Part shown: piece by piece, positions 12,995-51,373 of the stretch
Position numbering within the stretch: the stretch's first letter is position 1
Layout: every line of letters begins with the position of its first letter
NCBI GenBank assembly: GCA_964619365.1
Contig: CAZUDQ010000002.1
Coordinates: 5,537-69,536 of the forward strand
Source: an uncultured archaeon
GTDB taxonomy: Archaea > Altiarchaeota > Altiarchaeia > JAFGQM01
Direction of reading: 5' to 3'
Length of the DNA stretch: 64,000 bases
Made by a program: the position numbers and the translations under genes
Notes under the pieces: generated by a model
The model's database searches: none
What the model was told of the DNA's origin: nothing
The model's input: the letters and a program-made list of their open reading frames with translations, nothing else

Positions 12995-15900
12995 ATGCTG
13001 TCAGAAACAAAGCGAGCATTGCTTCCAAAAAGCCTTAATCTTGTTTTGGGTTTAGCAATTTTATCAGTAGTCTTAGCTACGCTCGTTTTTTCTTCTATGT
13101 CTGGCGCCTCAATAGATTCCGAGGACATTTATGAATACTTTGAATATCCAAATGCTTCAAGTTCAAATACAAGCGGGAATGAAACAGATAATCTGCCGAT
13201 TTTAGATATCTTGGATACCCCAGGGAACATAAGCATAAACATTTTTTCTCCTGCAAATCAAACACAAACACAGGACTTAAGTACTCTAGTTCAGGCTAAC
13301 CTTACTGCTGATAGGCTCGCCTATTTATTCTTAAACGATTCTTCCCTTGTCGCTTACTGGACGGCAGAGAACGGCGCAAACGACTCAAGTGAATACCACA
13401 ACGACGGAAGCTTTGGAGGAACTGCGACGACTGTTGCAGACGGCAAATTTGGAAGGGCTTTTGAAGCTGACGGAGCCGAACCCAATTACATAAACTTGGG
13501 AATGAGCACGGATTTTGACATATCAAGTGCATTCACGGTCAGTGTGTGGGTAAAAAACATAGGCAATAGCTCTGGACACACGATCTTAGGCGAGTGGGAT
13601 TCTATTATAACTAAATGGGACTGTGCTTCAGGTTGTGCTAAGTCATCATGGTGGATTGGTATTCAACCCAGTGATGAAATACTTTTCATAGTTGCCAATT
13701 CTACAGGTTCCAGGACAGTAACAGTCCCCGGTACGACTAAAATCAGATACGACTCGATTTGGCACCATGTAGTCGGAATCTATGATGGTTCATATTTGGA
13801 GGTATATCTTGACGGTGAGCGTGAGGGGCAGGTGGCATATTCAGAAGGCGTTCACGTAAATTCCACCGTACCTTTAGTTATTGCAGGTTCTGCAAATCCA
13901 CCTTTGGGCAGTTTTAATGGCTCAATTGACGAGCTTATGATATTCAACAGAAGCCTAAGTGAATCAGAGGTTAGGTCTCTTTATAATGCAACCGCCCAGG
14001 AATTCAATGTCACAGTAGACTTAGAACCCGGCAACAACTCCATATATCTCTCAGCAAAAGACACTCTCGCAAATTTCGCCAAGAACTATATCGTAGTCGA
14101 AAGGACCGAAACCAATCCCCCAAATATTATAATAATATCGCCCGCCAACTACACCCAGACACAAAACCAAACTACAAGCATAATTGCAAATGCCTCAGAC
14201 GAATCACAAGTCATGATGTTCCTTAACGATTCGTCCTTAGTCGGCTACTGGACGGCTGAAAACGGGGCGAATGACTCAAGTGAATACCACAACGATGGGA
14301 CTTTTGGGGACAATGCAACAACATCGGCAGACGGAAAGTTTGGGCGCGACTTCGCATTTAATGGATTAGGCGAATATGTCTCTATTAATGTTTCAAGCAG
14401 TCTTAACATAACTGACCCCATGACGATATCTCTTTGGGTAAAATTCAACAATGTTTCTGGGACTCAAACTATACTTTCAACATTTAATAGTTCTATAGAC
14501 GGATATTATATTCAAGAAAATAGTGCAAATACTATAGCCTTTATAGGCTCATGGGATCATAGGTCATATATTTATACTCCTGAGAATTTTACTACTGAGG
14601 ATACTTGGTATCTGATAACAGTTACAATAAACGGGACTCTTGGAAAATTATATATAAATGGCAATTTAACCGACTCAAACACTACACTTTATATGGCTCT
14701 TAACAGCACTGCAATCTATTTTGGGAAACATATTTCTGGGCAATTTCCCTTAAATGGTTCATTAGATGAAGTCATGTATTTTAACAGATGTTTAGGCGCA
14801 ACAGAAGTTCTCGCACTCTACAACGCGACAGCCCAAAACTTCAATGTCACAGTAGACCTAGAACCTGGCAATAACTCAATACATCTTTCAGCAAAAGACA
14901 CGCTTGCTAATTTTGCCAAGAATTATTTGGTAATCCAGCGTATAGTGCCACCTTCAGTTTCTTTTGTCCTGCCAACTCCTTCAAACGGGACGATTACTGC
15001 AAACACGAGTGTCCAAATCAATTCCAGCATAAACGCGTCAGACCTCGGAGACGTGGAGTTCAATTGGTCTGTCGGACCAAGAGACGGCCTCGTCCTTGAC
15101 CTGATATTTGACGATGGCAGTTTGAGGGATTATTCAGGAATGGGCAACGATGGGACAAATAATGGTTCAGAATATACTCCACAAGGGGCTGTTATGGGAG
15201 GGCGAGAATTTAATGGTATGACCGAGTATATTGATGTCGGAAATGATAATAGTTTAGATATAACTGGGAATATAACTCTTTCTGCGTGGATAAAAGCAGA
15301 AGCAAGACAGAATACATATCCGACTATTATTGCAAAAAGAGATACTGGAGGAAACACAAATTATCAGTTCTATCTGAATTGTGTGAATCGTTGTCAGCTA
15401 AGATTTGGTTTTGGCAATTACTCGCAACCGTGGTATGCCGACAGGGCGGGTAACATGGCCTTAAATGACAGCTTATGGCATTATGTCACCGTCACATATA
15501 ATGGTTCTGATTATATTTATTATGTGGATGGCAATGTCGATGCGATTAACCAAGAAACTGAAAGTTTAAGTTCGTATGTAACTGATAAAGACGCAATTAT
15601 CGGTTATTTTGAAGATGGCGGATCTACAAGATATTTTAACGGATCAATTGACGAAGTCAAGGTCTTTAACAGAAGCCTCAGTCAATCTGAGATAAAAGAA
15701 CTTTATTACAATTCCCGCGCCAGGTTCTATGATGATTCGCTTGTTTTGATGTATAACTTTGACAACCTAAGTGCAATTGGTGAAAACTCAAGCTATGTCG
15801 TTGACGCAAGTCTTTATAGAAATGATGCCAATGTGACGCGCGCAGTCTGGAATTCTTCCGGGAGATATGGCGGGGCATATAGTTTTAATGGAGTGTGTGG

Positions 15901-18900
15901 CGACGATTACATAAAGACCCCGAATAGTTCAATATTTAACATGTCAGAGTTTAGCGTTTCGGCCTGGATTTATTCCTCTTTAAATAAAACAACACCCGTA
16001 ATAGTGGCTGATGGGGATGTTATTGGTGGGGCATCACTTTTATGTGGCAAGGGAGCACGGGCGGGTTGGGCACTTCTCTTATATAACAAGACCAAGCTTA
16101 GTCTGACGCATTGTAACACGAGTTCTTACGGGAAGAACTATACCCTATTAATATCGGATGGTGAGGTCCAGCCCAATACTTGGACTTATGTGTCTCTGAC
16201 GTTTGATTCTGAGAATATCAACTTCTATGTAAACGGAGTCCTATCCAGCAGTTTTGAGAGTGGCGGGATAATGTATGACAACATAACAACAGATATAACT
16301 GTCGGCGCCCAGGATTACAATGAAGCTAATAATTTCAACGGCACGATTGACGAAGTCAGGGTATGGAACAGAAGCCTTAGTGCATCAGAAATATGGTTGA
16401 TGTATGAATCTAACTTAAAAAAATTCAATGTTTCTGGCTGGAGCCTTTATACAAACAAGACAAATCTTAGTTCGGGCAATTATGATTACATAACAGGTAT
16501 TGCAGACACTTTTGGAAATACAAGCGATACAGGTGAAAGGCTCCTTATTATTGATGCAAGTGCTCCGGTTATAACTTTTATTACCGAGAACCATACTCAA
16601 ACATTTAACACGAGTTTAGTAGTTGACGTAAATGTAAGTGATTCACTACAGACATATGCTTTCCTTAACGATTCGTCCTTAGTAGGTTACTGGACGGCTG
16701 AGAATGGGGCCAATGATTCGAGCAGATATCATAATGACGGGACTTTTGAAGGGGATGCGACAACTTCGCCCAATGGTAAATTTGGGCGAAAGTTTACATT
16801 TGATGGGACTGATGCGTATATAGAGACCTCTAATTTTTATAACCAGATAAACGACACAATCACCTTGTCAGTATGGGTTAATCCCAGTAGTTGTAATGGC
16901 TATGATTATATGCTCTATAAATGTCTGGACTGTGGTACTACTTCTTATGATGTTGGGACATATTCGATTAGCTGTAATTCAAATAATAGTGTAATATTTG
17001 GGGGAGTTTATGACAGTACATACATCCACCCCAGGTTTGTATCAAACTCTACATTATCAATGAATAACTGGACCCATATAACTGTAACTTACGATGGAAA
17101 CAATATTTTAATTTATTTGAATGGAAATTTGGATAAGCTTAGTTCCTTTCCTGGCCACTACTTCCAATATTCATACGGAGGAACTAATTTTCCAGTACGG
17201 ATAGGGCGTGGTAAAAATAGTTCTGTTCCTTGCTTTTTCAATGGTTCAATTGATGAGGTAATGATTTTTAGTCGTACATTATCAGCGTCAGAAATCCAGG
17301 CACTTTACAACGCAACAGCTCAAAATTTCAATGTCACAGTAGACCTAGAACCTGGCAATAACTCAGTACATCTTTCAGCAAAAGACACGCTTGCTAATTT
17401 TGCCAAGAATTATTTGGTAATCCAGCGTATAGTGCCACCTTCAGTTTCTTTTGTCCTGCCAACTCCTTCAAACGGGACGATTACTGCAAACACGAGTGTC
17501 CAAATCAATTCCAGCATAAACGCGTCAGACCTCGGAGACGTGGAGTTCAATTGGTCTGTCGGACCAAGAGACGGCCTCGTCCTTGACCTGATATTTGACG
17601 ATGGCAGTTTGAGGGATTATTCAGGAATGGGCAACGATGGGACAAATAATGGTTCAGAATATACCCCACAAGGGGCTGTTATGGGGGGAAGATCCTTTGA
17701 AGGTCTGGCTTATCAGGGCATTAGCGTCAATGTCAGTTCAAGTTTAGAGTCCCAAAATTTAACAATAAGTGCGTGGGTAAAGACAAGTAACCCAAATACG
17801 TCTCAGATAATAGCAACTAAAAGATACGCCCAGATAACCGCACCTTACAACTCCTATATCCTAGAGATGAATGCAGGTACCTATAGATTTGGTCTTGGAA
17901 AAGCCGCAGAAAACCAAACGCGACTATTCTCCATAACTCCAACATCTACAAACTGGGTTTTTGTTGCTGGCACTTATGATGGAGTCACTATGAAGATATA
18001 TGTTAACGGCGTTTTAGAAAATCAATCTAGTGATTTTGCAGGTCTGATTGCTTATAATGGCAGCTTAGGTTTCTTTGTCGGTAATTATGGTGGGGGGTGG
18101 GAATTTAATGGTTCAATTGATGAAGTTAAAGTTTATAACCGGAGCCTCAGTCAATCTGAGGTAGAAGAACTTTATCATAACTCGCGCGCCAGATTCTACG
18201 ACGATTCGCTTCTTGTGATGTATAACTTTGATGAGAATACTTTGATGAATGATTCAAGCTTACAAGACAATAACGGCAGGTGCGGAGGGACTGATATTTA
18301 TGGACGCAATAGCACTTGCCCAAACTGGACGACAAACGGGCGCTACGGTGGAGCCTATATCTTTAATGGACACGACAGTAACAACACAATCAAGGTTAAC
18401 CTCTTTAATATAACCCATGAAATCAGCTCTTGTATGTGGGTTAAACCATTAGCTCAGCCGGATGGAACAGATTATTTATTAAAATACAGAACATTTGTAG
18501 TATTCATAACTAATAATTCTGAGATACGGACTGCAGTCAGAATCGGGCAGACCTGGTATCATCTTACAGCTAACTACAGTCTATCTTTAGATAACTGGCA
18601 CCATGTTTGTACGGGATACAATAATGAAACAGGTGTACACATCTATGTGGACGGAGATTTAGTCGCAGAGAATGACTCGATTATTGGAGATCTTAATTCA
18701 ACTTACGCAGACCCTTCCGTTGAATGGGCGGCGATAGGTTCGCACTGGTCGCCTCCAACAGACGCCTTTGATGGTGTGATTGACGAGTTCCGGCTTTGGA
18801 ACCGCAGTCTTAGTGCCTCGGAGATACAGTTGATGTATGAGTCAAACCTAAGGGAGATAAACAGTTCCGTTTGGAACCTTTACACTAACAAGACAAACCT

Positions 18901-21900
18901 TAGTATTGGGAATTATAGCTACAAAGTTGGAATAGAAAACACAAGCGGGGCAAGCGCGACAACAGAGCTGCGCGAACTTGAGATATCCGACCACGACGTT
19001 ATTTCAGTTCATAGTTGTCAGAACCTAAGTGTAGAGGGCGCTACGTATCTCCTAGAAGATGATATAACATTCAATCCCCAAAGCGCATATTCATGTTTTA
19101 ACATAACTGCGGCCAACATAAGTTTTGACGGACAAGGGCATTCTATCGATTTTTTCGTAGATACTGCGTCCATTGCATTAGGGCATGTGCACGTAATCTA
19201 TGCTCACGAGGTAGATAATATCTCCATAACAAGTTTTAACATAACGCGCATCGGCCATTCAAACCATGCCATAGAACTTTCTTTTTCAGATAATTCAAGT
19301 GTGTATGGGAACAGCATTAACATGAATGGGCACGCTTGTTCAAGTCTTGGTGCAGGTGTAGATGTTTATTATTCAGATAAAGCAAACGTTTCAAATAATA
19401 TCATAACCCCCGGCGGATCTTGGGGTTGTTATAGTCCGAGACAAGGAATTTATGTTCAAAATTCGCAGAACGGAAGCCTTACAAATAATACTTTCTACAC
19501 AAGCATGGATAGGCTTGGGATAACATTGCAGACCTCAATTAACATGACCCTAGCAAACAATTCAGTTATAGGGAGCTTTGCAGGTTACGCTGTTTTTGCC
19601 TATGTCACAACTCCGGCTTATTATAATCACACAATTGGAACGGACAACACGGTTAACGGACTTCCATACGCGTATTTTTATGATGTATCAGGCACGGTTC
19701 CAGATATTTCAGGATATGGGGCGGCGTATTTCACACGAAGTAGCAACTTCACAGTCAAAGATATGACAATAAATGGCTCGTTTTACCTTAAGGATGTTGA
19801 GAATTACACGATTGCAAACAATACCTTTAATGTGAGTGATTGGGGCATTACCATAAAAGATTCAGATTATGGCACAATTGATGGAAACAATTTGACCGTT
19901 AATAGGCTCCCAGAGAGCGGGACATCTTATGTGTTTATGATGGCTTCCTCATACAATAACATAAGCAATAACAATTTTTCTTCAGAAAACAACTGCCAAG
20001 GTAACTGGGGTATTGATATTTCTCATGGGACTTCAACGGGAAACAGAATTGAGAATAATACTGCAAGTTCTTGTTACGGCAACCTCATGTACCCCCAGGA
20101 AGAGGGCAATATTATAAGGGGCAACAACTTTACTGCAAATCACAGTATCTTAGTTTCAAATCAGGACTCTAATAATTATTCAGATAATATCTTTAGATTG
20201 ATTTCAGACGGCACAATTGCTTCCTTTTCAAGCGCGCAGGAAAGCAGTATAAGCAATTGCACATTTATCTCAGGAGAAGTGTATTTCCTTATCGTAAGTG
20301 GATATGAGGTTTATCTAAATATAGCAAACACCACCTTCATAAATTCTTTGAACCTGTCAAGGAAGGTAAAAATAAATGACAATGTGTATAATACTGAAGT
20401 AAATTTTACAGATTCAAATATTGAGGGGGTTTTGTTGGGTAATAACATAGAGAATATCAGCTATTCCTCAAAAGGACATCTCAGGCTTTATTTCTCAAAT
20501 TCCAGTAATGATTCCGTTATCGGATTAAATGTCACAGGTTATAATGCTTTAGGTTCTAGAAATTTCTCTGCCCTTACTGGGGCAAACGGCAACATAACAG
20601 AGCTACTTGATATTTTCTCCGGAAACGAGACAAATGTGACTTACTACTCGAATTACACGATAAACTATACTTACATAGGGACGCCATTCTCAAACGTTCT
20701 TGACTTGACCGAGAATTTGACTTACCACATGCGGCTTCTTTTGGAAACGGGAGTCTCGGCAAGGCTTAGTGCGAGCCCCAGAGTGATTTCAGAGACTGGT
20801 AACATAATCTGGCGCGCGAATGTGACAAACTCGGGCAATGTGACATCAAACATCACAATAACCCCTTCATGGGGCTCTAGCTTCATTGTAGAGCTTGATC
20901 CTGGCGAGTCAAATATTAGAGAGTACCATCAGGCAGCCTCCTGTCCTACAACTTCAGTTACAAGGACGATTAGCGCATTTGCACAGAGTCCTATAGGAAA
21001 CGCGAGTGATTCAGATTCAGCCACAGCCAGCATATCATGTGGTTCTTCTACCTGTTCAAAAGCCTGGTCATGTGGTGAATGGGGCGATTGCATAAACGGC
21101 AGCCAGACACGCAACTGTTCATGTGCGTGTCCGAAGGATTCGCAATGCACTGGCGACCATGAAACGACAAGAGATTGTGATTTATGTGGCTCCATAATAT
21201 GCGAGGATGATGGAAATCCCTGCACCAGTGTGACTTGCATTGAAGGAATATGTGTCATCGAGCTTCTTGATGGAGTAACTTGTTCAGATGGAGATAATTG
21301 TACACTTGGGGATTATTGTAAGCTGGGGCTTTGCATACCTGGGAAAAAGTCAGACAAACCTGAGTGTATTGACGAGCCAAGATGCGATGCCGACTGGGTT
21401 TGTTCTTCTTGGTCAGAATGTAGCGGAGGCCTCAAGACTCGCATGTGCGAGTGTTCATGTGAAAGCGGAAACTGCCATGGCGACGGAGAGATGGTCAACA
21501 CCTGCGAAGTCAACGCAAGTGAGGGCGACCTTGAAATCATTGTTATCGGCGGGGAATTTGTCGGAGATGGTGTTAATGTCACAGTCCTTGATGAAAACGG
21601 CAATCCCGTTGACGGCGCGACAATACAGTTTATCACGCCTGACGGACACATACTCTCTTATAAAGCGGGCTTTAAGGCATATGAGCGTGGCAAGTGGGCA
21701 GTTATGGCCGATAAAAATGGGTATGCAGGAAATTACAAGTTATTTGAGGTCAATGACCTTGCAGTAGCATCAAATAATGATAAAGCAGGCTTTTTGGGGG
21801 TAGTATCAGAGACTGCCCAGGAGTTCTTTAACTGGGTTAAGAAAACCTACATACCCATAAGTATCATGGTCTTAATAATAATTGTTGCAGGAGCAGTGCT

Positions 21901-21934: not shown

Positions 21935-21971
21935 TGCTCCGGTATTAGTATCCAATGATTAATACTCAAAC

Positions 21972-23348: not shown

Positions 23349-23473
23349 TGTGATTTTTGATTAGAATTTAAGGACCCTTCGGGCTCCCTAGCTTTAGCTA
23401 TTTGTCTTTTAAAAGCAAAGCTTTTCTTTTTTATTGTTTTTGTAGTTAATAGAACACAGATAAATAATTCAAA

Positions 23474-25107: not shown

Positions 25108-25143
25108 TTTAAGCTTGACGTGTGTAACACTCGCACATCCGAG

Positions 25144-27592: not shown

Positions 27593-27650
27593 TATATAAT
27601 TTTAAGGGCGCAGATGATAAAAAAGAATCTCTAAAGGATTAAAAGAATCG

Positions 27651-27890: not shown

Positions 27891-27916
27891 AGTTAATTAG
27901 TTAAGACTAAAAAACC

Positions 27917-34281: not shown

Positions 34282-34282
34282 T

Positions 34283-35410: not shown

Positions 35411-35430
35411 CCCGTATTAAAGGACAAATA

Positions 35431-36216: not shown

Positions 36217-36245
36217 TCCAAAAACACCCCCCAAAGCAAAATATT

Positions 36246-37687: not shown

Positions 37688-37689
37688 TT

Positions 37690-38484: not shown

Positions 38485-38498
38485 GGTTTCTAAACTAG

Positions 38499-38537
38499 CT
38501 TTTTTAAGGCTTCTACAGTAGTAATAAAAGGTATAAT
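38499..38537 (+). promoter_or_regulatory. Candidate promoter region of giant gene 2 (agcttttttaagg ... gtaataaaaggtataat) directly upstream of the ATG
   Basis: AT-rich TATA-like elements lie 9-47 bp upstream of the start. The agctttt..aa motif is shared with the giant-1 upstream region. Confidence 0.25.
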
Positions 38538-38545
38538 CCCTGTAA

Positions 38546-41500
38546 ATGGTCTCAAAAGTAGCAGTAGTGTTAAGCTTAGCAGTACTTATTATAGCTTTTG
38601 CATTCTCCCTTAGCATCTTAAGTCCATTTGAAGAAAGCTTCAACTCATTACAATCGCCCCAAGGCCTTGCGATAGGGAATGATGACCTATTCGAGTACTT
38701 TATTACACCCCCAGAGGCAAACGATACTGAAAACGAAACTGGTAATGGGGATGGACAAGCAGTAGAGCCAAAATCCGAGAGCGTTTTCCCGCAAATTGAG
38801 TTTGTCCCACCGACACCTGATAACGGAACAACTACAACTGACACAAATGCCAGTATAAACGTAAGCATTACTGAAGAGAATTTAGCCAATGTCAGCTTTA
38901 ACTGGAGCGGAAGCGACTATTCCCTATATGATGATTCACTCGTCCTGATGATGAATTTTGACAATATCAGCTCATTAGGCGAGAATTCAAGCTATGTTGT
39001 TGATATGAGTGAGTATGGCAATAACGGTACTGTCAATGGCTCAACCTGGACTTCAAATGGCAGGTATGGTGGAGCGTATGAATTTGATGGCAATGGTTAT
39101 TTTATGAATTCAAGTTATATTGAGATTGCCGATTCAAATAGCTTAGATTTAGGAAATGAAATAACAGTTTCTACATGGATTAAATTTTATGATTATAATT
39201 TTGGGCCATATATTATAACTAAAAGGGATTCTGGTGCTGCTGTAGATAATCATTATGGAATTTATTTAAAAAATGAGACCGAAGGAGAAATGACCCCTAA
39301 ATTTACATGCGGAAATGGGACTCATAGAAATAGTGTTTCTGCCTCTAATGGAAGATTATCCGAGTTAAATCATTGGTATCATCTTGTTGGAATAAAGGAT
39401 GATGAATCAATTAGGATATATGTTGACGGTGAATTTGTTGGTTCCAACACTGAACTAAAAAATAGAAGTGGGGCTATTGTTGATAATGATACTATGGTTA
39501 CTGGGTGGTCTAATGATGTTCCATTAAGACTTGGTGCATTATATTATTCAAGTCTTGGGGTAAGTAGATATGGTTTCAATGGTTCAATTGATGAAGTAAG
39601 GATCTATAACCAAAGTCTGTCTGCTAATGAAGTAAGATTATTATATGAGTCAAATCTAAAGAAAATGGATCCTGATTCCTGGGAACTTTATGTTAACAAG
39701 ACAAATTTAACTTCTGGAACATATCATTATGTGGCTACTGCTACTGATTCAAGCGGGAATAGCAATAGTACGGAGATGAGGTTGTTGACCATTGATAATG
39801 TTGCAGATACTATTGCCCCCAATGTGTCAATTAGTTATCCTGTTGGGTATGGGGCTTATGTTAGTGTTGCATCATTTAATTATACTTCAAGTGAAGCGGG
39901 AAGCTGCTGGTATAGTTTGAATGATAGTTCTAATTCAACAGCAGTTGTTGCTAATAATAGTTTTGCTGGATTGAATTTAGAGGATGGAGATTATAATCTG
40001 ACTATTTATTGTAATGATAGTTCTGGTAATGTAGGAAGTAATAATTTGAGTTTTGTTGTTGGAGATTATTATGGTGCTGACGAAGTTAATAAGTTGTTGG
40101 CGAGTGATATTCAATTAAATGATGCTTTTGGTGCTTCTGTCTCAATTTCAGGAGATTATGCAATTATAGGAGCCTCTAATGAAGATGAAGGAGGTAATGG
40201 TGCTGGTGCAGCCTATATTTTTAATAAAAATTCTAGTGGGACTTGGAATGAAATTCAAAAAATTCGTTCAAGTGATAATAAAGGCGGAGATACTTTTGGT
40301 ACTTCTGTTTCAATTTCAGGAGATTATGCAATAGTTGGAGCATTTTATGAAGATAATTCTACTGGTTCTGTTTATGTTTTCAAGAAAAATTCTAGTGGAT
40401 TGTTTGAGGAGGTAAGTGAATTAAGAGCAAGTGATGCACAAGAGGGACCTCGTTTTGGTCATTCAATTTCTCTTTCTGGTGATTGTGCAATACTTGGAGC
40501 CGTTTGGGATGATACTAATGGTAATCGTTCTGGTGCAGCTTATATATTTAAGAAAAATTCTAGTGGTGGTTTTGAGGAAGTTAATAAAATAATAGCTAGT
40601 GATGGACAAGCTTATGATTATTTTAGTAATTCAATTTCTCTTTCTGGTGATTATGCAATAGTTGGAGCATCTGGGGAAGATGCTAATGGTGCTGGTGCTG
40701 GTGCAGCTTATATATTTAAGAAAAATTCCACAGGACAATTTGAAGAAATTCAGAAGATTTTGTCAAGTGATATTGCAGGTGGTGATGCTTTTGGTAATTC
40801 AGTTTCAATTTCAGGAGATTATGCAATAGTAGGGGCTCTTACTGAAGATCCTGAATCACTTTACAATGCTGGAGCAGCTTATATTTTTAAGAAGAATTCT
40901 AGTGGACAGTTTGAAGAAGTAGATAAAATTCAGGCAAGCGATAAAGAAACGATTGATAATTTTGGGCGGTCAGTTTCCATTAGTGGAGATTATGCAGTTG
41001 TTGGGTCTATTTATGAAGATACTGGTGGAAATAATTCTGGAGCAGCTTATATTTTTAAGAAGAATAGTAGTAGTGGATTTGAAGAAATTCATAAAATTAC
41101 TGCTAGTGATGGACAAGCTCATGATTATTTTAGTAATTCTATTTTTATTTCTGGAGAGTATGCAATTGTTGGAGCAAGTAATGAGAATTCTTCTGGTGCT
41201 GCTTATATGTTTAGATTGAATGAGAGTGTTGCTGATACAACTGCCCCTTTGATTACATTTATCACTGAGAATAATACCCAGATATATGCTTCAAGTATTT
41301 TGATTGAAGCTAATGTTACTGATGACAGCCAGACATATACGTTCCTGAATGATTCTTCCCTAGTTGGTTATTGGACTGCTGAGAATGGTGCTAATGACAG
41401 CTCTATATATAATAATAGTGGGAATTTTGTTAATGATACTTCAATCACTTCTTCAGGTAAGTTTGGAAGTGCATTCAGTTTTGATGGTAATGGTGATTAT

Positions 41501-44500
41501 ATAAATACTTCTATAGAGATTCCAGCCGAGAATTTTTCATTTTCCATGTGGTTCTATATGTTAGATAATGCAACATCAAGAAATGCTTCTATTAATTTAT
41601 TATCATCTGATGGGTTTGTGGTATATCAACATCCTGAAAATGATTTGATTTATTTTTATTCAGTTGGTGCAAGATATATTATTTGGTATCCAGAAATTAA
41701 TAAGTGGCATCATTTAGCTTGTTCAATTAATTCTGCAGGGAATGCGATAGATAATTATGATGCTAATTGTTACGCTGATGGTATTTTAAGAAGCCTTAAT
41801 CAGGATGGTTATTTAAATTCATCAACATATTTGAAGATTTCTTATTCTAGTGCTGCGAACCATTCTATTAATGGTTCTGTTGATGAATTTATGATTTTTA
41901 ATAGGAGTTTGAGTTCAAGTGAGATTAGTGCACTATATAATGCAACTGCACAGAACTTCAATACTACTGTTGATTTGGTTGTTGGAAATAATATAATTAA
42001 TTTGGTTGCAAAAGATACTTATGCTAATGTTGTTAGTGAGCAAGTTGTTGTTGAGCGGACCCCTACTGCATCTGAGAATGCGTTTGTTTCAACTTGGAAT
42101 ACTTCAGCTGTTTCAAATGTTTCAAGTAATGCATCACAAGTAATGTTGCCGTTAGAAGCTACGGGAAATTACGAGTTTACAGTTTATTGGGGAGATGGTA
42201 CTGATGATTATATAACAACATATAATCAAGCAGAAGTAAATCATACTTATGCAACTGAAGGTCTTTATAATATCTCAATTGATGGAACAATTGTTGGTTG
42301 GAGATTTAATAATGTTGGAGATAAGTTGAAGATAACAGATATTTCCAATTGGGGAAGTTTGAATGTGGGAAATAATAATGGTTATTTCTATGGTTGTGCT
42401 AATTTGGATGCAAGTGCGATTGATGCTTTGAATTTGAGTGGGACAACGATTTTGACCTCTATGTTTAGAAATAGTAGTTTTAATGGGAGTATTGGTAATT
42501 GGGATACTTCTAGTGTTACAAATACTGACTGGATGTTTTTCTACGCTAGTAATTTTAACCAAAACATAAGTGATTGGAATACTTCTAAGGTTACAAATAT
42601 GTTTTATATGTTGGGTGGTGCAAGTAGTTTTAATCAACCAGTAAATACATGGGATGTTTCTAGTGTTACTAATATGGGATATATGTTTTCTTATATGGAT
42701 TCATTTAACCAAGACATAAGCAACTGGGATGTTTCTTCTGTTACTTCCATGTATCGTATGTTTCTTAATGCTGACAATTTTAATCAACCTTTAGATAATT
42801 GGGATACATCTAGTGTTACTGATATGGAAAGGATGTTTCAGAATGCAGATAGTTTCAACCAAGATATTGGAAGTTGGGATACATCAAAGGTTACTAATAT
42901 GAATTCTATGTTCTATGGTGCTTTAAACTTTAATCAGCCATTAAATAATTGGGATACTTCTAGTGTTACGTCTATGAACTATATGTTTAGAGATGGTAAT
43001 TTGTTTAATCAAAATATTAGTAATTGGAATGTTTCTAATGTAGAATACATGGATTATATGTTTTATTCTTGTCCATCTTTTGATCAAAATATTGGTAGTT
43101 GGAATGTTTCTAATGTAATAAATATGGATAATATGTTTAATGGTTCAACTCTATCTACTGAAAACTATGATGATTTATTATCTGGTTGGTCAAATTTACA
43201 TAGTTTGCAAGAAAATATTGAATTTCATGCTGGTAATTCAACTTATACAAATTCCGCAGCTAAGGCCATATTAATTGATAATTATAATTGGACTATTACT
43301 GATGGAGGATATTTGGATATAGTTGTTCCCAATATTACATTTATCACTGAGAATAATACCCAGACATCCGCTTCAAGTATTTTGATTGAAGCTAATGTTA
43401 CTGATGACAGCCAGACATATACGTTCCTGAATGATTCTTCCCTAGTTGGTTATTGGACTGCTGAGAATGGTGCTAATGACAGCTCTATATACAATAATAA
43501 TGGAACATTTAATGGTAATGCTTCTGTTACAAGTTCTGGTAAGTTTGGCAGTGCATTTGAGTTTGATGGTGATGGGGATTACATTGAATCATCTGAAAAT
43601 GGCTCACTAAATATTGGTAGAGATCAACTTACAATTTCTTCTTGGGTTAAATTAAATAATTTTATAGATGGCCGTAGTTTTATTGTTGAAAGGAGATTTG
43701 AAACTGCCGACCTATACAGCTTATACGTACAGAATAATTCTGCCATTAGTTTTAATATGGAACGGGGACCTTCACCAACAGGTATTATTAGTAATCCAGA
43801 TATTTTTTCACTTAACGAATGGCATCATATTTTAGGAACTTATGATGGCGCATCAATTAAAATTTATTTAGATGGTAGTCTAATTCAGGAAAATTCATCC
43901 TCTGGAAATATTGATAATAGTTCAGGAACTTTCAGAATAGGTACAAATGATGGAGCTAGATTTTGGAATGGTTCTATCGATGAAGTAATGGTTTTCAATC
44001 GTTCGTTATCTTCTTCAGAAGTTAAAGCATTATACAATGCAACTGCACAGGACTTTAATGCTACTGTTGATTTGGTTTCCGGTAATAATTCTGTTCAGTT
44101 GGTTGCTGTTGATACTGAATATAATGTTGCTAGGGAAAGTATTAATGTTGAGAGAAATGATAGTACTGCTCCTTCAATTACATTTATAACAGCTAATAAT
44201 ACCCAGACATCCGCTTCAAGTATTTTGATTGAAGCTAATGTTACTGATGACAGCCAGACATATACGTTCCTGAATGATTCTTCATTAGTTGCTTATTGGA
44301 CTGCTGAGAATGGTGCTAATGACAGCTCTATATATAATAATAGTGGAACATTTAATGGTAATGCTTCTGTTACAAGTTCTGGCAAGTTTGGAAGTGCATT
44401 TGAGTTTGATGGTGATGGGGATTATGTGGATGTTGGAAATTCACAAACATTAAATCAAGCGACTCTTTCCTTATGGTTTTATAGAAATTCAAGTAAAGAT

Positions 44501-47500
44501 AATTTTCAAATGATGTATACTGGCTATTCCCTTTCAGAGTTAGAATTATCTTTCTATATAGATACTCTAAGAGCTTATGTGAATAATAGTTATGTTTTCT
44601 ATAATAATGCTTATTCATTAAATACTTGGTTTCATGCAGTTTTAACTTTTAATTCAACTAATCAAACACTTTATGTAAATGGTGTTCCAGTTGCAAGCAG
44701 AATTCCAATTGGAGTTGTGTCTGCATCTGCCAAAACTATTGGTGGAAGGAAATGGAATTATTCCTTTAATGGTTCTATTGATGAGGTTATGATTTTTAAT
44801 AGGAGTTTGAGTGCTAATGAAGTTAGTGCTTTGTATAATGCAACTGCTCAAAACTTCAATACTACTGTTGATTTGGTTTATGGTGATAATGCTGTTCAGT
44901 TAGTTGCTGTTGATACTGAGTATAATGTTGCCAGAGAAAGTATCAATATTGATAGGATAGTATATAATATCACAAATTGTGTTGAGTTGCAGGCAATGGG
45001 TTATAATTTGTCAGGAAATTATGTGTTGGCGAATAATATTGATTGTTCTGATACTGCTAATTGGAATAGTGGTGCTGGTTTTGATCCAATCGGTGATTCG
45101 TCAAATTATTTTACAGGTGGTCTTGATGGACAAGGATATAATATAAGTTATCTTTACATAAATCGTTCTGATGTGGGTTATGGAGGACTTTTTGGATATG
45201 TTAGTTCTGGTGAGATAAATAATTTAGGTTTGATTTCGGTTAATGTTACAGGGTTTAATCAGACAGGTGCTTTTGCTGGCTGGTTCGGGGGCTCAGTAAT
45301 AAATAATTCTTATGTTACTGGGAGTGTTTTTGGAGGGGTAACTGCTGTTGGTGGATTTTTTGGAATAATACATAGTTCAACAATTTTAAATTCTTATTCA
45401 ATAGTTGATGTAAGTGGTGTTCATGATCATATAGGAGGTCTTGCAGGACAAATGATTGGTTCAGTTGTTAATAATTCTTATGTGAATGGAAACATAAAGG
45501 GGAGTAGTACATATATTGGTGGAATTGGAGGTAGTTTATGGGATGCAACAATTTCAAATTCCTATTTTGTCGGAAATGTTACTGGAACCAATTTAGTGGG
45601 TGGTATAGTTGGGGGAATGATTGGCATTGGTAGTTCAACCAAGAACTGTTATTCTACTGGCAATATAACTGTTACTGGTGGAAGTGGAGTTGGAGCTATT
45701 ACGGGATACTTGAATGGTGCAGGAGAGACTATCATAAATTCATACTGGTTGAATAATACTGGAGATGATGTAGTTTCTTGTTATCCTGGAGGGAATGAGA
45801 ATTGTACTGCGGTGACAAGTGAAATTTATTTCTTTTCGGTTTCGAATTCTCCTATTTCAGCATGGCAGTTCCCGCCGTGGGATTCTTTTTGTGATGGAGT
45901 AGGATACCAACCATTGGCATGGCAAAATATATCAACTGAGACAGAATGTTTGGGATATTCTACAATAACACCACAGATTAGTTTTGTGAACCCTACTCCC
46001 GATAATGGAACAAATACTACTAATAATTCTGTTGAGATTAATGTTTCCATTACTGAAGAGAATTTAGCCAATGTCAGCTTCGACTGGGCACTAGGTCCAA
46101 GAGATGGACTTGTTCTTGATTTGAATTTTGATGATGGGAGTTTGGTTGATGAATCAGGGCAGGGGAATGATGGAGTAAATAATGGTTCTATCTATACTCC
46201 AGATGGAAAGATTATGGGTGCTAGAGAATTTGATGGTGAAAATGATTATGTTAATGCTGGAAATGATACATCTTTAGATATAAGAGATCAAATAACTTTA
46301 GGAGCTTGGATTAAGTTAAATGAATTAACTAATAATTCAGCCGTAAACATTATTTTAAATAAAGATTGGGCTGATTATGAAATTGGAATTGCAGCTAATT
46401 CTACTGGAGTATCAGTTTATAACTTTGCGTGGTATTTAGGTGGTGTTTCATCTGGATGGCATGATGGTGGAGGACCAATTAATATAAATGAATGGACCTC
46501 TGTTATGTTAACGTATAATGGTGAACAAGTTAGAACTTATATTAATGGAGTATTAACTAATAGCTATGAATATAATGGAAGTATTTATTATCCTGGACTT
46601 GATTGTGATTTGAAGATAGGAGCAAGATCACGGCCAGACTCCTGTGAGGAGAGTGGAAGTTATTTCAACGGTTCTATTGATGAAGTAAAAGTATATAATC
46701 GGTCGTTAAGTTCTACTGAGATTACTGAGTTGTATCATTCTAGTAGGGCTAAATTTATGGATGATAGTTTAGTTTTGATGATGAATTTTGACAATATCAG
46801 CTCATTAGGCGAGAATTCAAGCTATGTTGTTGACATGAGTGAGTACGGGAATGATGGCGTCGTTAATGGTTCTACTTGGACCCCAAATGGTAATTATGGC
46901 GGAGCTTATGAGTTTGATGGAGAGAATGATTATATTAACCTGACATCGGCTGTCTTGGAAACAACTAATGATTCTCATGAGATTACTTTGCTTGCATGGA
47001 TAAAACCTAATGATTATGGTGATCCTGATTCAAATCAAAGCTATATTATTAGCCAATATATATATCCTAATAGTGACAGATTCTTATGGGGATTCGATGG
47101 TAAGAAGATAAGATATTTTGTTGGAGGAAATCAGAGTTTAGGAAATACGAATATTACATTAGGAGTTTGGCAGATGATTGCTTCAACTAAGTTATCTAAT
47201 GGTACAGTCAAGCATTATTATAATGGAATATATGATGGTAAAGGTGTTGTGCAAGGAAAGTATCAAGATACAGAGACAATCATAGGTGGTGGACATGTAT
47301 ACGCTGGTGTTTATGCATTCAATGGTTTAATTGATGAACCAAGGATTTATAATAGAAGTCTTAGCGCAAATGAAATTCAGTTATTATACGAGTCAAATCT
47401 AAAGAAAATTGATCCTGATTCCTGGGAACTTTATGTTAATAAGACTAATTTAACCGTTGGAGACTATTCTTATTCTGCAAGCGCATGTGATTCGAGCGAT

Positions 47501-50500
47501 AATTGCAACTCAACTGAAACAAGATACCTAACTATTGAATCAGAATACGCACCTACATTCCAAGGCAATCTTGACTTAAATAACGACGGATATCTGGACA
47601 TAGTTTTCTCTAACTGGAGAAATGAAACGTCTTACAACATCAATAGTACCATATACTATGGTAGCGCAACTGGATTTAGGATAAATGATACTGGTGAACT
47701 TCCTACAATGGGGGCAGTTGGTAATTCCATTGCCGACTTAAATAACGACGGATACTTAGACATAGTTTTCTCTAACTGGAAAAATGATAGCACCTATAAC
47801 ATAAACAGCACCATCTATTACGGAACCGTTGCAGGATTTGATGCCGATAACAAGGCTGAACTGCCCACTCACGGCGCACAAGGGAACTCCATTGCCGACC
47901 TGAACAATGATGGTTATTTAGACGTAGTTTTCTCTAATTATTTCAATGGGGTATCTTACGACATCAACAGCACCATCTATTATGGGAGCGCAACAGGATT
48001 TGGTACCAACAACACCAAGGGCCTGCCAACAAACCACGCAATAGGAAATTCCATTGCCGACCTGAATAACGACGGATACTTTGACATAGTGTTTTCCAAC
48101 TCTGGCGAGTCAAGTGTTATATATTACGGAAGCGCAACAGGATTTGATGCTGATAATAAAACAGAGTTATTAACCCATGCCGCGACTGGAAATTCCATTG
48201 CCGACCTAGATAATGACGGGTACCTGGATATTGTGTTTTCCAATAATGGCGAAGGTGGGGACCGCAACATCAACAGTACGATCTACTACGGAAGCGCTGC
48301 AGGATTTGATGCCAACAATACGAAAGGATTACTAACACACGGAGCATATACAAATTCCATTGCCGACTTAAATAACGACGGATACCTAGATATCATATTC
48401 TCAAATTATCATAATAACACAGGTCGCAACATCAACAGTACGGTGTATTATGGGGGTGTTAGCGGGTTTAACATTAACAACAAAACAGAGTTACCAACAC
48501 ACGGAGCAAATGGCAATTCTGTTGCTGACCTAAACAACGACGGATACTTAGACATAGTGTTTTCCAACACATATAACGATACTGATTTTAACATCAACAG
48601 CACCATCTATTACGGAAGTGTAACAGGATTTAACACCAACAATACTGGGGGCTTACCTACAATAGGTGCTTCGGGGGTTTCAGTTGTCGTCGGACAAGTA
48701 GCTTCAGCAAATACGGCATATGGGACGACGCTTGGCGCAACGCTGATTCCTGATTTTAGGTTGGCAAAGAACTCCAGTTTAAGCGATTTTATTGACCTTG
48801 ACATATTCTTCAACGATAAGAATGGGGACGAACTTACGATTTTGGCATACAAAGATGGCGCACTTTACTCTGACTCAAGCGTGCAGCTGCTTATCGATAA
48901 TACAACACACAAATTAAGTATAATCCCTGCCACAGATTATGCTGGGACAATAACTGGCATCTATTTTGTCGCAAGCGATGGGCAGTACAATGTCAGCAGT
49001 AACAATGTAAGTGTGATTGTGCTAGGTAATGACACCCAGGCGCCACAAATCGACTTCGTCCCGCCGACGCCCGATAACGGGACTGTCACAGCAAATACCT
49101 CAGTACTGATAAACGTCAGCATCAACGATACAGGCCTTGCAAACGTCACATTTGACTGGAACGACAGCGAAGAAGTCTGTTCAATATACTCCCAGGACAT
49201 AAGCAATTACTCTTGCACCGATTATCATGACTCTTCTTTGGTTCTTGCTATGAACTTTGATAATTCAAGTGACCTAACGGATTTATCGGGTCATGGAAAT
49301 GACGGAATCAATAACGGAGCTACATGGACTCCTGATGGGAAGTATGGCGGAGCAAGAAGCTTTGATGGGTTAAATGATTCCGTCTACATCGATTCTTTTG
49401 ACATTGGAAATTCAATTGGAAAAACAAGTTGTGCATGGATATATCCATTATCTTTTAGAGTAAATAGTCTAATCGGAATCATAGCAGGGCCAAGCAGTTA
49501 TACTGTTAATGTCCCCTGGATGAGATTATATAATGGTTACATGTTTAATAGAATTTGGAATAGTACTCATGCGTTTAGCAAGGAATACTCATCTATAGAA
49601 GCTCTGAAACTTAATTCTTGGTCGCATCTTTGTGTGGTTTGGCAAGGCAATGGTCCAAATCAAAATTTAAGTATGCTTTATTACATCAATGGAGGTCTTG
49701 ATAAGAACATTACTTCAAACATAAAAGATACGGATGGATATGTCGGAATGGCTTATGGGGATGTCAGAATAGGTTCTGATCCCGTATATGCTTCGAGATT
49801 TTTCAATGGTTCTATCGATGAGATTAGAATTTACAACAGGATGTTATCCTCTGATGAAATTAACTTATTATATGAATCCAGGTTAGTAAAGTATTCTGAT
49901 TGGAACCTTCTAGTAAATAAAACTAATTTATCGGTTGGCAACTATACTTATTCTGCAAGCGCTTGCGACATTTATAATAATTGCAATTCTACGGGAATTA
50001 ATACTCTTGAAATAATTTCTACAAGCTTCACAGCAGGTTTTAGCGTGACCCCTTCAAGCATCTCGGAAACAGGAACTGCAATATGGAATTTAACGCTAAA
50101 CAATCTTGAGACATCAAACCTCACTGTGGAAATCTCACCCTCTTGGACATCAGCATATAATACGACTGTAAGCGTTCTTTCAAACTACTCGCGTGCGTGG
50201 AGCCAGGGCGTTTCCTGCCCGACAACATCAGTCACAAGAAGCGTCACTTTGACCGAGGGTAGCTCGTCAAAACAAAAATCAGCGATAGTATCAGTCTCCT
50301 GCCCCTCATCAACTTGCTCAAAAGACTGGTCATGCGGAGAATGGAGCGAATGTGTTGATGGGGCACAGACGCGTGACTGTTCTTGCGCGTGCCCAAAAGA
50401 CTCACAGTGCAATGGCGACCACGCAACAGAACAAGAATGCGACGCGTGCGAGGGTGTGACCTGCGAAGATGACGGCAATCCATGCACGAGCGTTGCGTGT

Positions 50501-51373
50501 TTTGAAGGGGATTGTGTAATCGAGCTGTTATCAGGAAACTCCTGTGGGGACTCTGGCGACCCATGTATTGACCTTATCTGCCAGGAAGGGGTGTGCACAG
50601 AGACTCCGACAACAAACGCGTGTGATGACGGTGATGTCTGCACAGAAGGCGACAGGTGTTCAGGCGGAGTTTGTACTCCTGGGGAATTTGTCTGTGATTG
50701 TAAGGTTGCAAGTGATTGCCCGCAGGAAGAATGCTTTATTGCAGATTGCATCGCAGGAAAGTGCAAGTTCACATATGATGAGACTTGCAAAAAAGAAAAA
50801 GATGAATGTGACGCCGACTGGATTTGTGAAGACTGGTCAGAATGCAGCGGAGGCCTCAAGACTCGCATGTGCGAGTGTTCCTGTGAAAATGGGAATTGCC
50901 GTGGCGATGGACAAATGGTCGACACTTGCGAAATCAATGCTACGGAAGGTGGATTAGAAATCGTAGTTGGCGACGGCTTTGTAGGCGATGACATAAATGT
51001 CTCGATATATGACGAATACGGCAATCCCGTTGACGGCGCGACAATACAGTTCATCGCACCCGACGGGCGCATACTCTCTTATGAGGAAGGCTTTAAGCTC
51101 TATGGGGAAGGCAAGTGGGCTGTCATGGTAGACAAGACTGGATATGCTGGAAACTATGAACTCTTTGATGTAGAGACTAAAAGCGGAACGAGTGAATCGG
51201 GAGTAGCAGGAGTCCTTGGTTCTGTTGCAGACGCAGTAGGCGGCTTTTTTGACTGGATTGCGCAGTCAGCCGCGCGTTCCGCATTACTCCCCGTCACAGT
51301 AATAATTGCGGCAATATTAATGATTATGTTTGTGCTAAAAAAGAATTATTCTCACAAGATAAAGGGACGTTAA
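38546..51373 (+). CDS. Giant cell-surface protein 2 (4275 aa), a modular adhesin-like protein ending in the shared Cys-rich module and a TM anchor
   Basis: A single ORF. The N-terminal signal is [17 protein letters not shown]. The order of blocks is LamG, 8 FG-GAP-like blades, LamG, about 11 DUF285 repeats, 3 LamG, 7 GLUG units, 2 LamG, 10 FG-GAP/VCBS-like repeats, an Ig-like region, LamG, then the shared C-terminal module and a TM. The lectin module end motif (NGSIDEV(M/R/K)I(F/Y)NRSLS) is repeated many times. N-x-S/T sequons are dense. The C-terminal TM is [15 protein letters not shown] plus [11 protein letters not shown]. Confidence 0.85.
40085..41216 (+). other. FG-GAP-like beta-propeller blade block (8 units of about 45 aa) within giant 2
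   Basis: Eight units of the form ASD...[15 protein letters not shown]...D.....[15 protein letters not shown]. This block is the most AT-rich part of the gene. Confidence 0.5.
41254..41423 (+). repeat. Intragenic direct repeat, copy 1 of 3 (about 170 bp; copies 2 and 3 extend to about 245 bp)
   Basis: The unit tacatttatcactgagaataatacccaga...gctctatatataataatag recurs at 43336 and 44179 with more than 95% identity. Confidence 0.8.
42370..43200 (+). other. DUF285-type repeat block (WD(T/V)S(S/K/N)VT(N/S)M..MF...FNQ(D/N/P)I(S/G)(N/S)W), about 11 units
   Basis: Units such as [45 protein letters not shown] are the signature of Pfam DUF285 (Mycoplasma/BspA-like) repeats. Confidence 0.65.
43336..43580 (+). 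repeat. Intragenic direct repeat, copy 2 of 3
   Basis: Near-identical to 44179..44425 and to copy 1 over its first 170 bp. Confidence 0.8.
44179..44425 (+). repeat. Intragenic direct repeat, copy 3 of 3
   Basis: See copies 1 and 2. Confidence 0.8.
45100..45770 (+). other. GLUG-motif repeat block within giant 2
   Basis: Units such as [95 protein letters not shown] and [21 protein letters not shown] match the GLUG motif pattern (GGLVG...NSYxTG.V.G). Confidence 0.55.
47560..48650 (+). other. FG-GAP/VCBS-like repeat block (10 units of about 44 aa: [15 protein letters not shown]...[14 protein letters not shown])
   Basis: The D-x-N-x-D-G-x-x-D Ca-binding-like motif is followed by hydrophobic strands and repeats with high regularity. 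This is an integrin-alpha-type beta-propeller signature. Confidence 0.6.
50210..51373 (+). other. Shared Cys/Trp-rich C-terminal anchor module, giant 2 copy
   Basis: It is collinear with 20938..21934: SCPTTSVTR...[34 protein letters not shown]...[11 protein letters not shown]...[28 protein letters not shown]...[16 protein letters not shown]...[15 protein letters not shown] plus a TM. An extra Cys-rich insert sits between the two halves. Confidence 0.8.

Follow-up and report, generated by a model that had tools for sequence, protein, structure and literature searches.

Two giant surface-protein genes in the window

We analyzed a 64,000-nt stretch of DNA from an uncultured archaeon (contig CAZUDQ010000002.1 of assembly GCA_964619365.1), hereafter called the window, in which two very long genes encode putative surface proteins that we refer to as P1 and P2. 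The six-frame list of open reading frames (ORFs) revealed that each gene is a single ORF with an ATG start, encoding 2979 aa in P1 and 4275 aa in P2, and that these two are by far the longest ORFs of the window (Table 1). Translation revealed no internal stop codon in either gene, the frames running unbroken over 8.9 and 12.8 kb. Together they comprise 21,768 nt, or 34% of the window, in agreement with the first-pass annotation of this DNA, which had described two uninterrupted ORFs filling a third of it. No tRNA or Rfam elements were found within the window.

A Kyte-Doolittle scan revealed exactly two strong hydrophobic segments in each protein, an N-terminal leader and a C-terminal transmembrane (TM) helix, the latter lying 20-35 residues from the end and followed by a Lys/Arg-rich tail of 7-11 residues. 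These segments predict the topology of type I membrane proteins, or anchoring at both ends should the leader stay uncleaved. A conserved [IVL][YF]EY[FL] motif is located at aa 43-49 of P1 (13120-13140) and aa 45-51 of P2 (38678-38698). Upstream of the genes, the spacers at 12941-12994 (P1) and 38485-38545 (P2) both contained AGCTTTT(TT)AA and ATAATCC(C) shortly before the ATG; because these elements are shared, the relationship between the two genes may extend into their promoter or 5' regions.

Both proteins were very rich in N-x-S/T sequons. We counted 156 in P1 against a shuffle mean of 57 ± 6.5 (z = 15.2) and 187 in P2 against 85 ± 8.0 (z = 12.7), an excess of 2.2-2.7 times over expectation, while the reversed triplet [ST]-x-N, used as a control, was close to expectation in both. 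The density amounted to 4.4-5.2 sequons per 100 residues in P1 and P2, compared with 0-2 in the other 38 ORFs of the window. Sequons were sparse in the last 250-500 residues, which form the Cys-rich stalk and anchor, so the excess is confined to the ectodomain. The dense sequons, the leader and the C-terminal anchor had all been anticipated by the first-pass annotation and were borne out by the hydrophobicity scan and these counts.

Table 1. Coordinates of the P1 and P2 genes and of their predicted modules in the window.
Feature	Coordinates	Strand	Basis
P1 surface protein gene: leader, YEYF motif, 7 LamG modules with immunoglobulin (Ig)-like linkers, beta-helix, Cys-rich stalk, Ig, TM anchor	12995..21934	+	
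P1 N-terminal leader (hydrophobic aa ~14-32), IYEYFEY motif, N-x-T-rich acidic spacer	12995..13414	+	
P1 array of 7 LamG_3 modules with Ig-like linkers	13415..18850	+	Pfam and local hidden Markov model (HMM)
P1 right-handed parallel beta-helix region, aa ~2100-2400	19292..20194	+	Pfam, NCBIfam
P1 C-terminal module: Ig-like, two WxCxxWSxC..QTRxCxC knots, Dicty_CTDC-like Cys repeats, CarboxypepD_reg-like Ig, TM (~21842-21910), basic tail	20738..21931	+	
P2 surface protein gene, 4275 aa	38546..51373	+	
P2 block with foreign-looking codon usage, codons 163-2952: GC at third codon positions (GC3) 0.20, T at third positions (T3) 0.56; LamG1-6, FG-GAP_2 propeller, PARCEL, GLUG-like block	39032..47401	+	
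P2 seven-bladed FG-GAP_2 beta-propeller, aa ~510-930	40073..41335	+	Pfam
P2 PARCEL/DUF285 solenoid, 8 units of 25 aa	42413..43345	+	Pfam, NCBIfam
P2 GLUG-like block, aa ~2140-2480, five GGxxG units	44963..45985	+	sub-threshold Pfam
P2 second seven-bladed propeller, FG-GAP/FG-GAP_3, native codon usage	47543..48715	+	Pfam
P2 C-terminal module: build as in P1 with extra Cys repeats; TM (~51272-51340)	50012..51370	+	

LamG modules and their linkers

Pfam scans were performed at E ≤ 0.01 on the full proteins and at E ≤ 1 on scanned segments. Both proteins matched the LamG_3 family (PF13385), P1 at E = 2.9e-169 and P2 at E = 1.2e-136, and each had seven stretches covering the full domain (profile positions 1-151 of 151), which by sequence places modules of both proteins in the ConA-like lectin superfamily. 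Using a local HMM built from the P1 and P2 modules themselves, we placed the LamG modules at aa 141-334, 438-613, 722-908, 947-1141, 1252-1442, 1551-1731 and 1773-1952 of P1 and at aa 163-371, 962-1135, 1656-1834, 1937-2101, 2545-2734, 2773-2952 and 3589-3780 of P2. All 14 end in an NGSIDEVxIFNRSLSxxEIxxLY-type motif (NG[ST][ILV]DE..[FWY][NS]R.L), as the first-pass annotation had noted; we take this ending to be the ordinary C-terminal signature of LamG_3, with nothing special to P1 and P2. The modules were 20-42% identical to one another and fell into three subtypes, which were interleaved between the two proteins.

Comparison of the linker-plus-LamG profile with PDB sequences revealed matches to ConA-like/LamG domains, including the S-layer-domain protein 4qvs at 1.3e-13, an arabinanase accessory module, tetanus toxin Hc, pappalysin, neurexin, pentraxin and a trans-sialidase lectin domain. 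Judged from these profile matches, the solved relatives are lectin, carbohydrate-binding or adhesion domains. The linkers between the LamG modules are approximately 100 aa long and Ig-like, with weak matches to Big_3_3, Big_13 and DUF4625, and an LNDSSLV[GA]-type linker signature was common to P1 and the low-GC3 block of P2 described below. At the nucleotide level, P2 carries 248-nt direct repeats, 89-96% identical, that start at 41252, 43334 and 44177, and a 300-nt pair in P1 (14750, 17237) was 91% identical. These copies show that the linker and LamG-start segments have recently undergone duplication or gene conversion.

Additional modules of P1 and P2

Beyond the LamG array, P1 contained a region that scored above the family cut-offs for Beta_helix (PF13229; 43.8 bits, cut-off 25.9), NosD (28.3 bits, cut-off 23.6) and TIGR03804 (22.9 bits, cut-off 19.45). 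P2 contained two predicted FG-GAP beta-propellers, each with seven consecutive repeats over threshold. The first matched FG-GAP_2 (PF14312) with 339.7 bits (E = 1e-104) over seven stretches corresponding to seven SGDYAIVGA blades, and the second matched FG-GAP (PF01839; 76.7 bits) and FG-GAP_3 (PF13517; 92.7 bits) over seven stretches each and carried seven DLNNDGYLD calcium-loop-like motifs. Between the propellers, the repeats of DUF285 (PF03382) scored 285.6 bits against a cut-off of 25 (E = 3e-86), and the PARCEL model (TIGR02167) scored 115 bits against 30 over seven stretches, with a tandem period of 75 nt.

The remaining P2 block reached 17.6 bits for GLUG (PF07581) against a gathering threshold of 20.5 (E = 0.005), and Peptidase_M26_N was likewise below threshold (20.5 bits against 27.7). 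This block was approximately 40% identical to the GLUG blocks of two relatives, P0014 and the 1829-aa P0256, which are annotated equally faintly; we therefore call it GLUG-like, a weak assignment in which family membership is unproven. Domain searches thus recovered by sequence the lectin, beta-helix and propeller families that the first-pass annotation had named, together with DUF285, while its GLUG units stood only as a sub-threshold likeness. The P1 beta-helix region, the GLUG-like block and the C-terminal profile gave no meaningful match among PDB sequences, and no enzyme, ATPase or nuclease family was detected in P1 or P2 with Pfam and NCBIfam.

The conserved C-terminal module and the family it defines

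BLASTP comparison of P1 with P2 revealed 48% identity over the last ~400-450 residues (P1 2582-2975, P2 3823-4273), 36-43% over several 550-aa LamG-linker supermodules and 28% over the N-terminal ~350 residues; at the sequence level this confirmed the proposal of the first-pass annotation that the two proteins are paralogous. The shared C-terminal module begins with an Ig-like sandwich, a knot of the form TCSKxWSCGEWxxCxxGxQTRxCSCxC, Dicty_CTDC-type Cys repeats and a second knot, after which come a CarboxypepD_reg/Big_1-like domain, a helix, the TM segment and the basic tail. Relatives carry PF00526, the family of the Dicty_CTDC-type Cys repeats.

Among 5.8 billion clustered proteins, the whole module was found in only two clusters, P0001/P0014 (1034 aa) and P0002 (463 aa); the module of P0014 was 63% identical to that of P2. 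A profile search of 1.84 billion representatives yielded about ten clusters with all or part of the module, adding P0255, which corresponds to P1, the 1829-aa P0256 and approximately eight clusters with the distal half from knot through Ig to TM (among them P0264, P0281, P0285, P0293 and P0299). The remaining ~1700 profile matches covered Cys-rich repeats only. In an alignment of ten members, the invariant skeleton was C..[DE]W.C..WS.C..G.[QK]TR.C.C.C, then vGd..t..De.Gn...P.G...G.w...K.GY, a TM segment and a basic tail, which often ends in [EK]K[IL].

At the other end, most members have a leader followed within 10-25 residues by [IVL][YF]EY[FL] and an acidic spacer rich in N, E and T. This YEYF-type motif was present in P1, P2, P0014, P0256, P0281, P0293 and P0290 despite their unrelated middles, and it may represent a processing or sorting mark. 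P1 and P2 thus both belong to a lineage-specific family recognized by its ends, namely the C-terminal knot, Ig, TM segment and basic tail and, usually, the leader with YEYF. The middles differ from member to member: P0014 has one GLUG block and P0256 four, P0285 combines LamG with Cys repeats, and P0281 and P0293 combine Cys repeats with Ig. The leader of P0014 was 57% identical to P2 aa 1-72, and by sequence this protein looks like a shortened P2, encoded at another locus of a related organism.

That related organism (contig GC 0.44, native GC3 of ~0.40 throughout) carries three family members of 879, 463 and 1829 aa in a row on contig L002 (positions 2-9655; ENA ERZ27315495 k141_349635) and the 1034-aa short form of P2 on contig L050 (8216-11320). 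Its family is expanded and is found there without LamG arrays or a low-GC3 block.

We also considered whether the knots are thrombospondin type 1 repeats (TSP_1, PF00090), which they resemble by eye only; no such Pfam match was found at E ≤ 1 on the C-terminal segments, and the assignment was rejected. The PDB profile search returned only a low-density lipoprotein receptor repeat at E = 0.41. Foldseek comparison of the C-terminal model with the PDB gave nothing at E ≤ 1e-3, with generic Ig/FnIII sandwiches only, and the C-terminal alignment did not find the family in the genome contigs searched, where only Cys-rich repeats in Myxococcota and others were matched.

A low-GC3 codon block within P2

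The composition profile revealed that GC falls to 0.32-0.36 between 40 and 48 kb, with a GC skew of +0.2 to +0.3, compared with ~0.44 GC elsewhere. Along P2, GC3 was 0.36-0.41 in codons 1-150 (leader and spacer), 0.10-0.34 in codons ~160-2950 (the block), 0.40-0.50 in codons 3000-3550 (second propeller), ~0.30 in codons 3589-3780 (LamG7) and 0.44-0.53 in the C-terminal anchor module. The block begins where LamG1 begins and stops where LamG6 stops; both edges coincide with module edges. Pooled GC3 was 0.197 in the block and 0.418 in 31 housekeeping genes (chi-square 455, p = 6e-101; gene-level mean 0.412, standard deviation 0.041), whereas the rest of P2 had a GC3 of 0.417 and did not differ from the housekeeping genes (p = 0.94). 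This codon-usage mosaic is a new feature of the present analysis.

The block is characterized by T-ending codons. T3 was 0.56 in the block, whereas all other genes and the remainder of P2 had 0.28-0.32. Base usage at four-fold sites was T 0.52, A 0.34, G 0.08 and C 0.07 in the block, compared with T 0.32, A 0.30, G 0.15 and C 0.23 in native genes, while purine-ending two-fold codons were unchanged. When the third positions of conserved amino acids were compared between P1 and the block, C-to-T changes outnumbered the reverse by 105 to 21, A-to-T by 51 to 14 and G-to-T by 19 to 3, and G-to-A (25) equaled A-to-G (24). The native anchor showed no T drift at third positions between P1 and P2. Cytosine deamination was rejected as the cause, as A-to-T and G-to-T were as asymmetric as C-to-T and G-to-A matched A-to-G; the block reflects an equilibrium preference for T-ending codons and not a deamination scar. 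Amino-acid composition was also rejected, as P1 has the same composition with a normal GC3 of 0.39.

The simplest reading of these patterns is that the 8.4-kb block resided for long in a low-GC genome before it recombined in frame into P2. We regard a foreign origin of the block as close to an even call. We give somewhat less than even chances to P2 being a natural chimera in which a native frame captured an imported cassette exactly at module boundaries; that native frame would consist of the leader with YEYF at one end and the second propeller, LamG7 and the anchor at the other. The donor would be an unsampled low-GC lineage with the same protein family, because the linkers of the block keep the LNDSSLV[GA]-type signature that is also found in P1. 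Since some Altiarchaeales have ~32% GC, it may have been another altarchaeon or a physically associated partner. Alternatively, the codon bias may have arisen under a local regime of mutation or selection. A reproducible mis-join is much less likely, as the identical 4275-aa P2 sequence is recorded in four sources (NCBI, JGI/IMG, ENA and GEM).

Searches on the block itself turned up no donor. The linker signature (LV[GA]YWTAE / NGANDSS) had no relatives in the JGI metagenome or IMG/VR contigs scanned, and P2 aa 372-1655 had no homologue with the same architecture, the matches being FG-GAP_2 propellers only, mostly bacterial and at most 59% identical over ~30% of the query; this identity reflects the stereotyped repeat consensus. 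The only match that combined an FG-GAP_2 propeller with DUF285, as P2 does, was the 1300-aa P0054 (contig L054; JGI 3300029624 Ga0311279_117353). Its neighbors are genes for ankyrin-repeat proteins and DNA-polymerase-B fragments, a context that looks viral or eukaryote-associated and not archaeal and is uninformative on the donor.

Host lineage and genomic neighborhood

A Hel308 search was used to place the host; the query itself was recovered as P0135 (NCBI/ENA, 191,538-nt contig). All but two of the named relatives were labeled "Candidatus Altiarchaeota/Altiarchaeales archaeon", the exceptions being 'uncultured archaeon' and 'Methanobacteriota archaeon'. The best named match was 58% identical and most others were 46-49% identical, which suggests that the host is nearest to Candidatus Altarchaeota; NCBI taxonomy places this group within the kingdom Nanobdellati (DPANN). 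The window encodes replication and repair proteins (PCNA, PriS/PriL, Hel308, HerA and an HhH-GPD glycosylase), translation proteins (Pelota/aRF1-like and L15e), metabolic enzymes (two PurP, PurM-like, TIM, RpiA, a PcrB-family GGGP-synthase-like protein, TrpF and an aminotransferase) and KaiC-like ATPases.

Three contigs of relatives (Hel308 58-61% identical) kept the order PurP-PurP-FAD oxidoreductase-[slot]-TIM-unknown-Hel308-Pelota(-ACT-DUF711). In the window the slot holds P1, in contigs L052 and L053 six small unrelated genes occupy it, and in L051 it holds two Cys-rich proteins of 466 and 575 aa on the opposite strand with pilin-type leaders. P1 is thus an accessory gene in a variable slot, because the flanking order is kept while the slot genes differ, and throughout the lineage the slot looks like a hotspot where surface genes vary. 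P2 lies between RpiA and a HAD hydrolase, while its short form P0014 lies between PfkB and small ORFs near exosome and proteasome genes.

Several neighboring features were also observed. In L051 the slot proteins (5269-8516, 17680-19485) have type IV pilin-like leaders (..GQTGLEY.. and ..GRSAVEY..), and the slot of L052 spans 3368-8232. The gene at 3099-5810 (+) of the window encodes a third surface protein, which is ~870-900 aa long and has no Pfam match. It combines a signal-like leader and an Ig-like region with many Cys-rich repeats (CGNGxC..GETCxxCPxDCGxC), and its C-terminus has a TM helix and a basic tail that ends in DKKL, as in the tails of P1 and P2. Two adjacent paralogous genes at 58031-58564 and 58586-59458 (+) encode small membrane-anchored proteins with near-identical leaders (METKQMY...), DEHGCIPSAGYSWCExLGECIRPWETDCP repeats and no Pfam match; in the second, sequons number 2 per 100 aa. 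At 55146-55631 (-), a T2SSF (FlaJ/TadC-like) membrane protein that looks truncated adjoins a 311-aa ORF at 56045-56983 (-), which has no Pfam match, a TM segment and an ...ESESMEHH... stretch recalling a signal-peptidase motif; 55146-56983 may be the remnant of a pilus or secretion locus, or a small such locus, near the surface-protein genes.

Comparison with known systems

LamG-rich giant surface proteins are a kind already described in DPANN archaea, and P1 and P2 are filed there. Large N-glycosylated surface proteins with multiple LamG domains have been reported, and interpreted likewise, in Mia14/ARMAN, Nanohalobium, Nanohalococcus, Nanohalovita and other nanohaloarchaea. The resemblance is close: these proteins are archaeal and strain-specific, often lie on variable islands, have a signal peptide together with several LamG domains and numerous sites for N-glycosylation, and their predicted role is the binding of glycans or glycoproteins for contact between cells. 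In contrast, up to five LamG domains have been reported in them, compared with seven each in P1 and P2, which add FG-GAP propellers, PARCEL, the GLUG-like block, a beta-helix and the family-specific Cys-knot/Ig/TM anchor and whose organism looks biosynthetically competent.

Like P1 and P2, SPEARE and other membrane-anchored proteins of Nanohaloarchaeota (5,998-9,409 aa) are giant and strain-specific, begin with a Sec-type leader, contain Ig-like and beta-propeller modules and are anchored in the membrane near the C-terminus. However, those proteins end in a cytoplasmic VirB4/TraG-like ATPase with a second such ATPase adjacent, whereas the tails of P1 and P2 have 7-11 residues and their neighbors are housekeeping genes (an FAD oxidoreductase, a HAD hydrolase and primase among them). 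With no ATPase family found by Pfam or NCBIfam and no adjacent secretion ATPase, SPEARE membership was rejected.

The hamus subunit of Ca. Altiarchaeum hamiconexum comes from the same phylum-level neighborhood; it too is a surface protein, is glycosylated, and has a signal at its N-terminus and a TM helix predicted at its C-terminus; its NosD-type beta-helix resembles that of P1. The domains that define the hamus protein are S_Layer_N, NosD and FKBP_C; it lacks LamG, and its homologues are reported to be absent outside stream-adapted Alti-1. No S_Layer_N or FKBP_C match was found in P1 or P2 at E ≤ 0.01 over the full proteins or at E ≤ 1 in the scanned segments, and we rejected their membership of the hamus or archaeal S-layer proteins. 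They were also rejected as archaeosortase/exosortase substrates (PGF-CTERM and related), as no CTERM sorting model in NCBIfam matched either protein and the TM segment with its basic cluster has no PGF-like motif.

RTX/BAP-type adhesins and the adhesin-like proteins of Methanobrevibacter consist of a long stalk of repeated beta-sandwich modules with ligand-binding domains and evolve by duplication and shuffling. These giant adhesins of bacteria and methanogens share the logic of stalk and module shuffling with P1 and P2. Unlike them, P1 and P2 combine a Sec leader with a C-terminal TM segment and have no type I secretion signal, LPXTG motif, outer-membrane anchor or archaeosortase CTERM.

Proposed function of P1 and P2

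Taken together, the module content, sequons and anchors point to P1 and P2 as adhesins that leave the cell by Sec, are anchored at the C-terminus and bind glycans multivalently, and that form part of a small family restricted to this lineage; we consider this the probable explanation. Archaeal Sec export, AglB-dependent N-glycosylation and the use of LamG, ConA-like and FG-GAP domains as ligand-binding modules form the background to this proposal. P1 and P2 would be exported by Sec, N-glycosylated at many of their 156 and 187 sequons, held in the cytoplasmic membrane by the C-terminal helix and projected tens of nanometres from the cell. Their seven ConA-like/LamG lectin modules would then bind carbohydrates or glycoproteins multivalently, with many weak sites far from the membrane acting through avidity, and the propellers, PARCEL solenoid and GLUG-like block of P2 and the beta-helix of P1 would assist. 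The outcome may be adhesion to other cells, to biofilm matrix or extracellular polymers, or to particles. The family keeps both ends and swaps the middle, and P2 appears to have taken up an 8.4-kb run of modules with foreign codon usage. The label "adhesin-like surface proteins" is reasonable on these sequence features, and the view of the first-pass annotation that they are uncharacterized surface proteins is supported.

Several points weigh against this interpretation. The adhesive role, ligand and surface location, as well as signal-peptide cleavage and glycosylation, are read from sequence only, and no AglB gene was found within the window. AlphaFold2 models were too poor to use, both for the C-terminal module (4-row alignment, mean pLDDT 53.6) and for the P1 beta-helix region as a single sequence (pLDDT 44.5), so that the stalk and beta-helix assignments come from HMM matches. 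LamG and beta-helix folds also occur in enzymes and S-layer proteins. In addition, the lineage was placed with a single marker whose best named match is 58% identical.

Among the alternatives, a structural or protective role, in which P1 and P2 would form an S-layer-like sheath or a glycocalyx against viruses or grazers and would not be specific adhesins, is unlikely, though the likeliest of them. It is consistent with the very high glycosylation potential, with an S-layer-domain protein as the top PDB relative of the LamG profile and with the hamus protein, which has a comparable signal, NosD-type beta-helix and predicted C-terminal helix. Nevertheless, neither S_layer_N nor any other S-layer family matched P1 or P2, the module set is typical of binding proteins, and the genes are not conserved in relatives, which would be unusual for a core envelope protein. 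A cell-bound polysaccharide-processing enzyme, with the P1 beta-helix as lyase or hydrolase and the LamG modules as carbohydrate-binding modules, appears improbable. The Beta_helix, NosD and weak Pectate_lyase_5 matches of P1 and the arabinanase accessory module among the LamG relatives would fit it; however, no glycoside hydrolase or lyase family was significant (Pectate_lyase_5 had E = 0.62 and is described as an adhesive domain), the beta-helix region has no PDB sequence relative, and P2 has no candidate catalytic domain at all. We consider it very improbable that the long ORFs or the P2 mosaic are assembly artefacts caused by repeated modules, even though the source is probably a metagenome-assembled genome, the internal repeats are 60-96% identical and the codon-usage switch is sharp. 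The frames are unbroken, the sequences on either side of the block are parts of one gene in one genome, and both ORFs were reproduced in independent records: P0255, on a separate 75,962-nt JGI/IMG and GEM contig, has the length of P1 and is identical at 2977 of 2979 residues, P0404 (NCBI) is 100% identical to P1, and the exact P2 sequence stands in the four sources named above. Neither of the two findings that the first-pass annotation had named as refuting it, an absence of these folds in domain searches or broken ORFs, was obtained.

The first-pass annotation had named the two proteins as candidates for a novel host-attachment or cell-cell interaction system, as proteins of a type found in small-genome archaea. 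On the host-attachment reading, P1 and P2 would be the apparatus with which an episymbiont recognizes and holds a specific host cell. The DPANN neighborhood at the phylum level, the proposal of LamG-rich giant surface proteins as host-attachment factors in Mia14 and nanohaloarchaea, and the strain-specific occurrence of the genes in a variable slot would all suit this view. Yet the window encodes steps of purine, tryptophan, sugar-phosphate and lipid metabolism alongside its housekeeping genes, a related contig encodes HMG-CoA reductase and IlvD, and no host, secretion ATPase or effector-like domain is linked to the P1 and P2 genes. Altiarchaeales have been described as free-living or biofilm-forming autotrophs, and those of Alti-2 as free-living, with genomes of 1.4-3.3 Mb and a GC content of 32-48% (PMC4975002). 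Host attachment is accordingly doubtful, somewhat more so than an envelope role, and the claim of novelty did not hold, this kind of protein having been reported already. As for the small genome, the taxonomic neighborhood (Altarchaeota, DPANN) agreed with it, while the biosynthetic genes and free-living Alti-2 relatives argue against an obligate episymbiont.

As multivalent adhesins, P1 and P2 would overturn no current idea and would instead extend a pattern already noted in DPANN archaea. A third of a 64-kb stretch spent on two surface proteins represents a large investment in contact with the outside, made by an archaeon that appears to be related to the grappling-hook-bearing Altiarchaeales. 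The 14 LamG modules and two propellers are clonable candidates for learning what uncultivated archaea of this group stick to, and the codon mosaic of P2 offers a clean natural example of how very long modular genes are assembled. If the imported cassette is real, giant archaeal adhesin genes would diversify by whole-cassette exchange between lineages, while their conserved ends would serve as a simple export-and-anchor chassis that can be searched for in other genomes.

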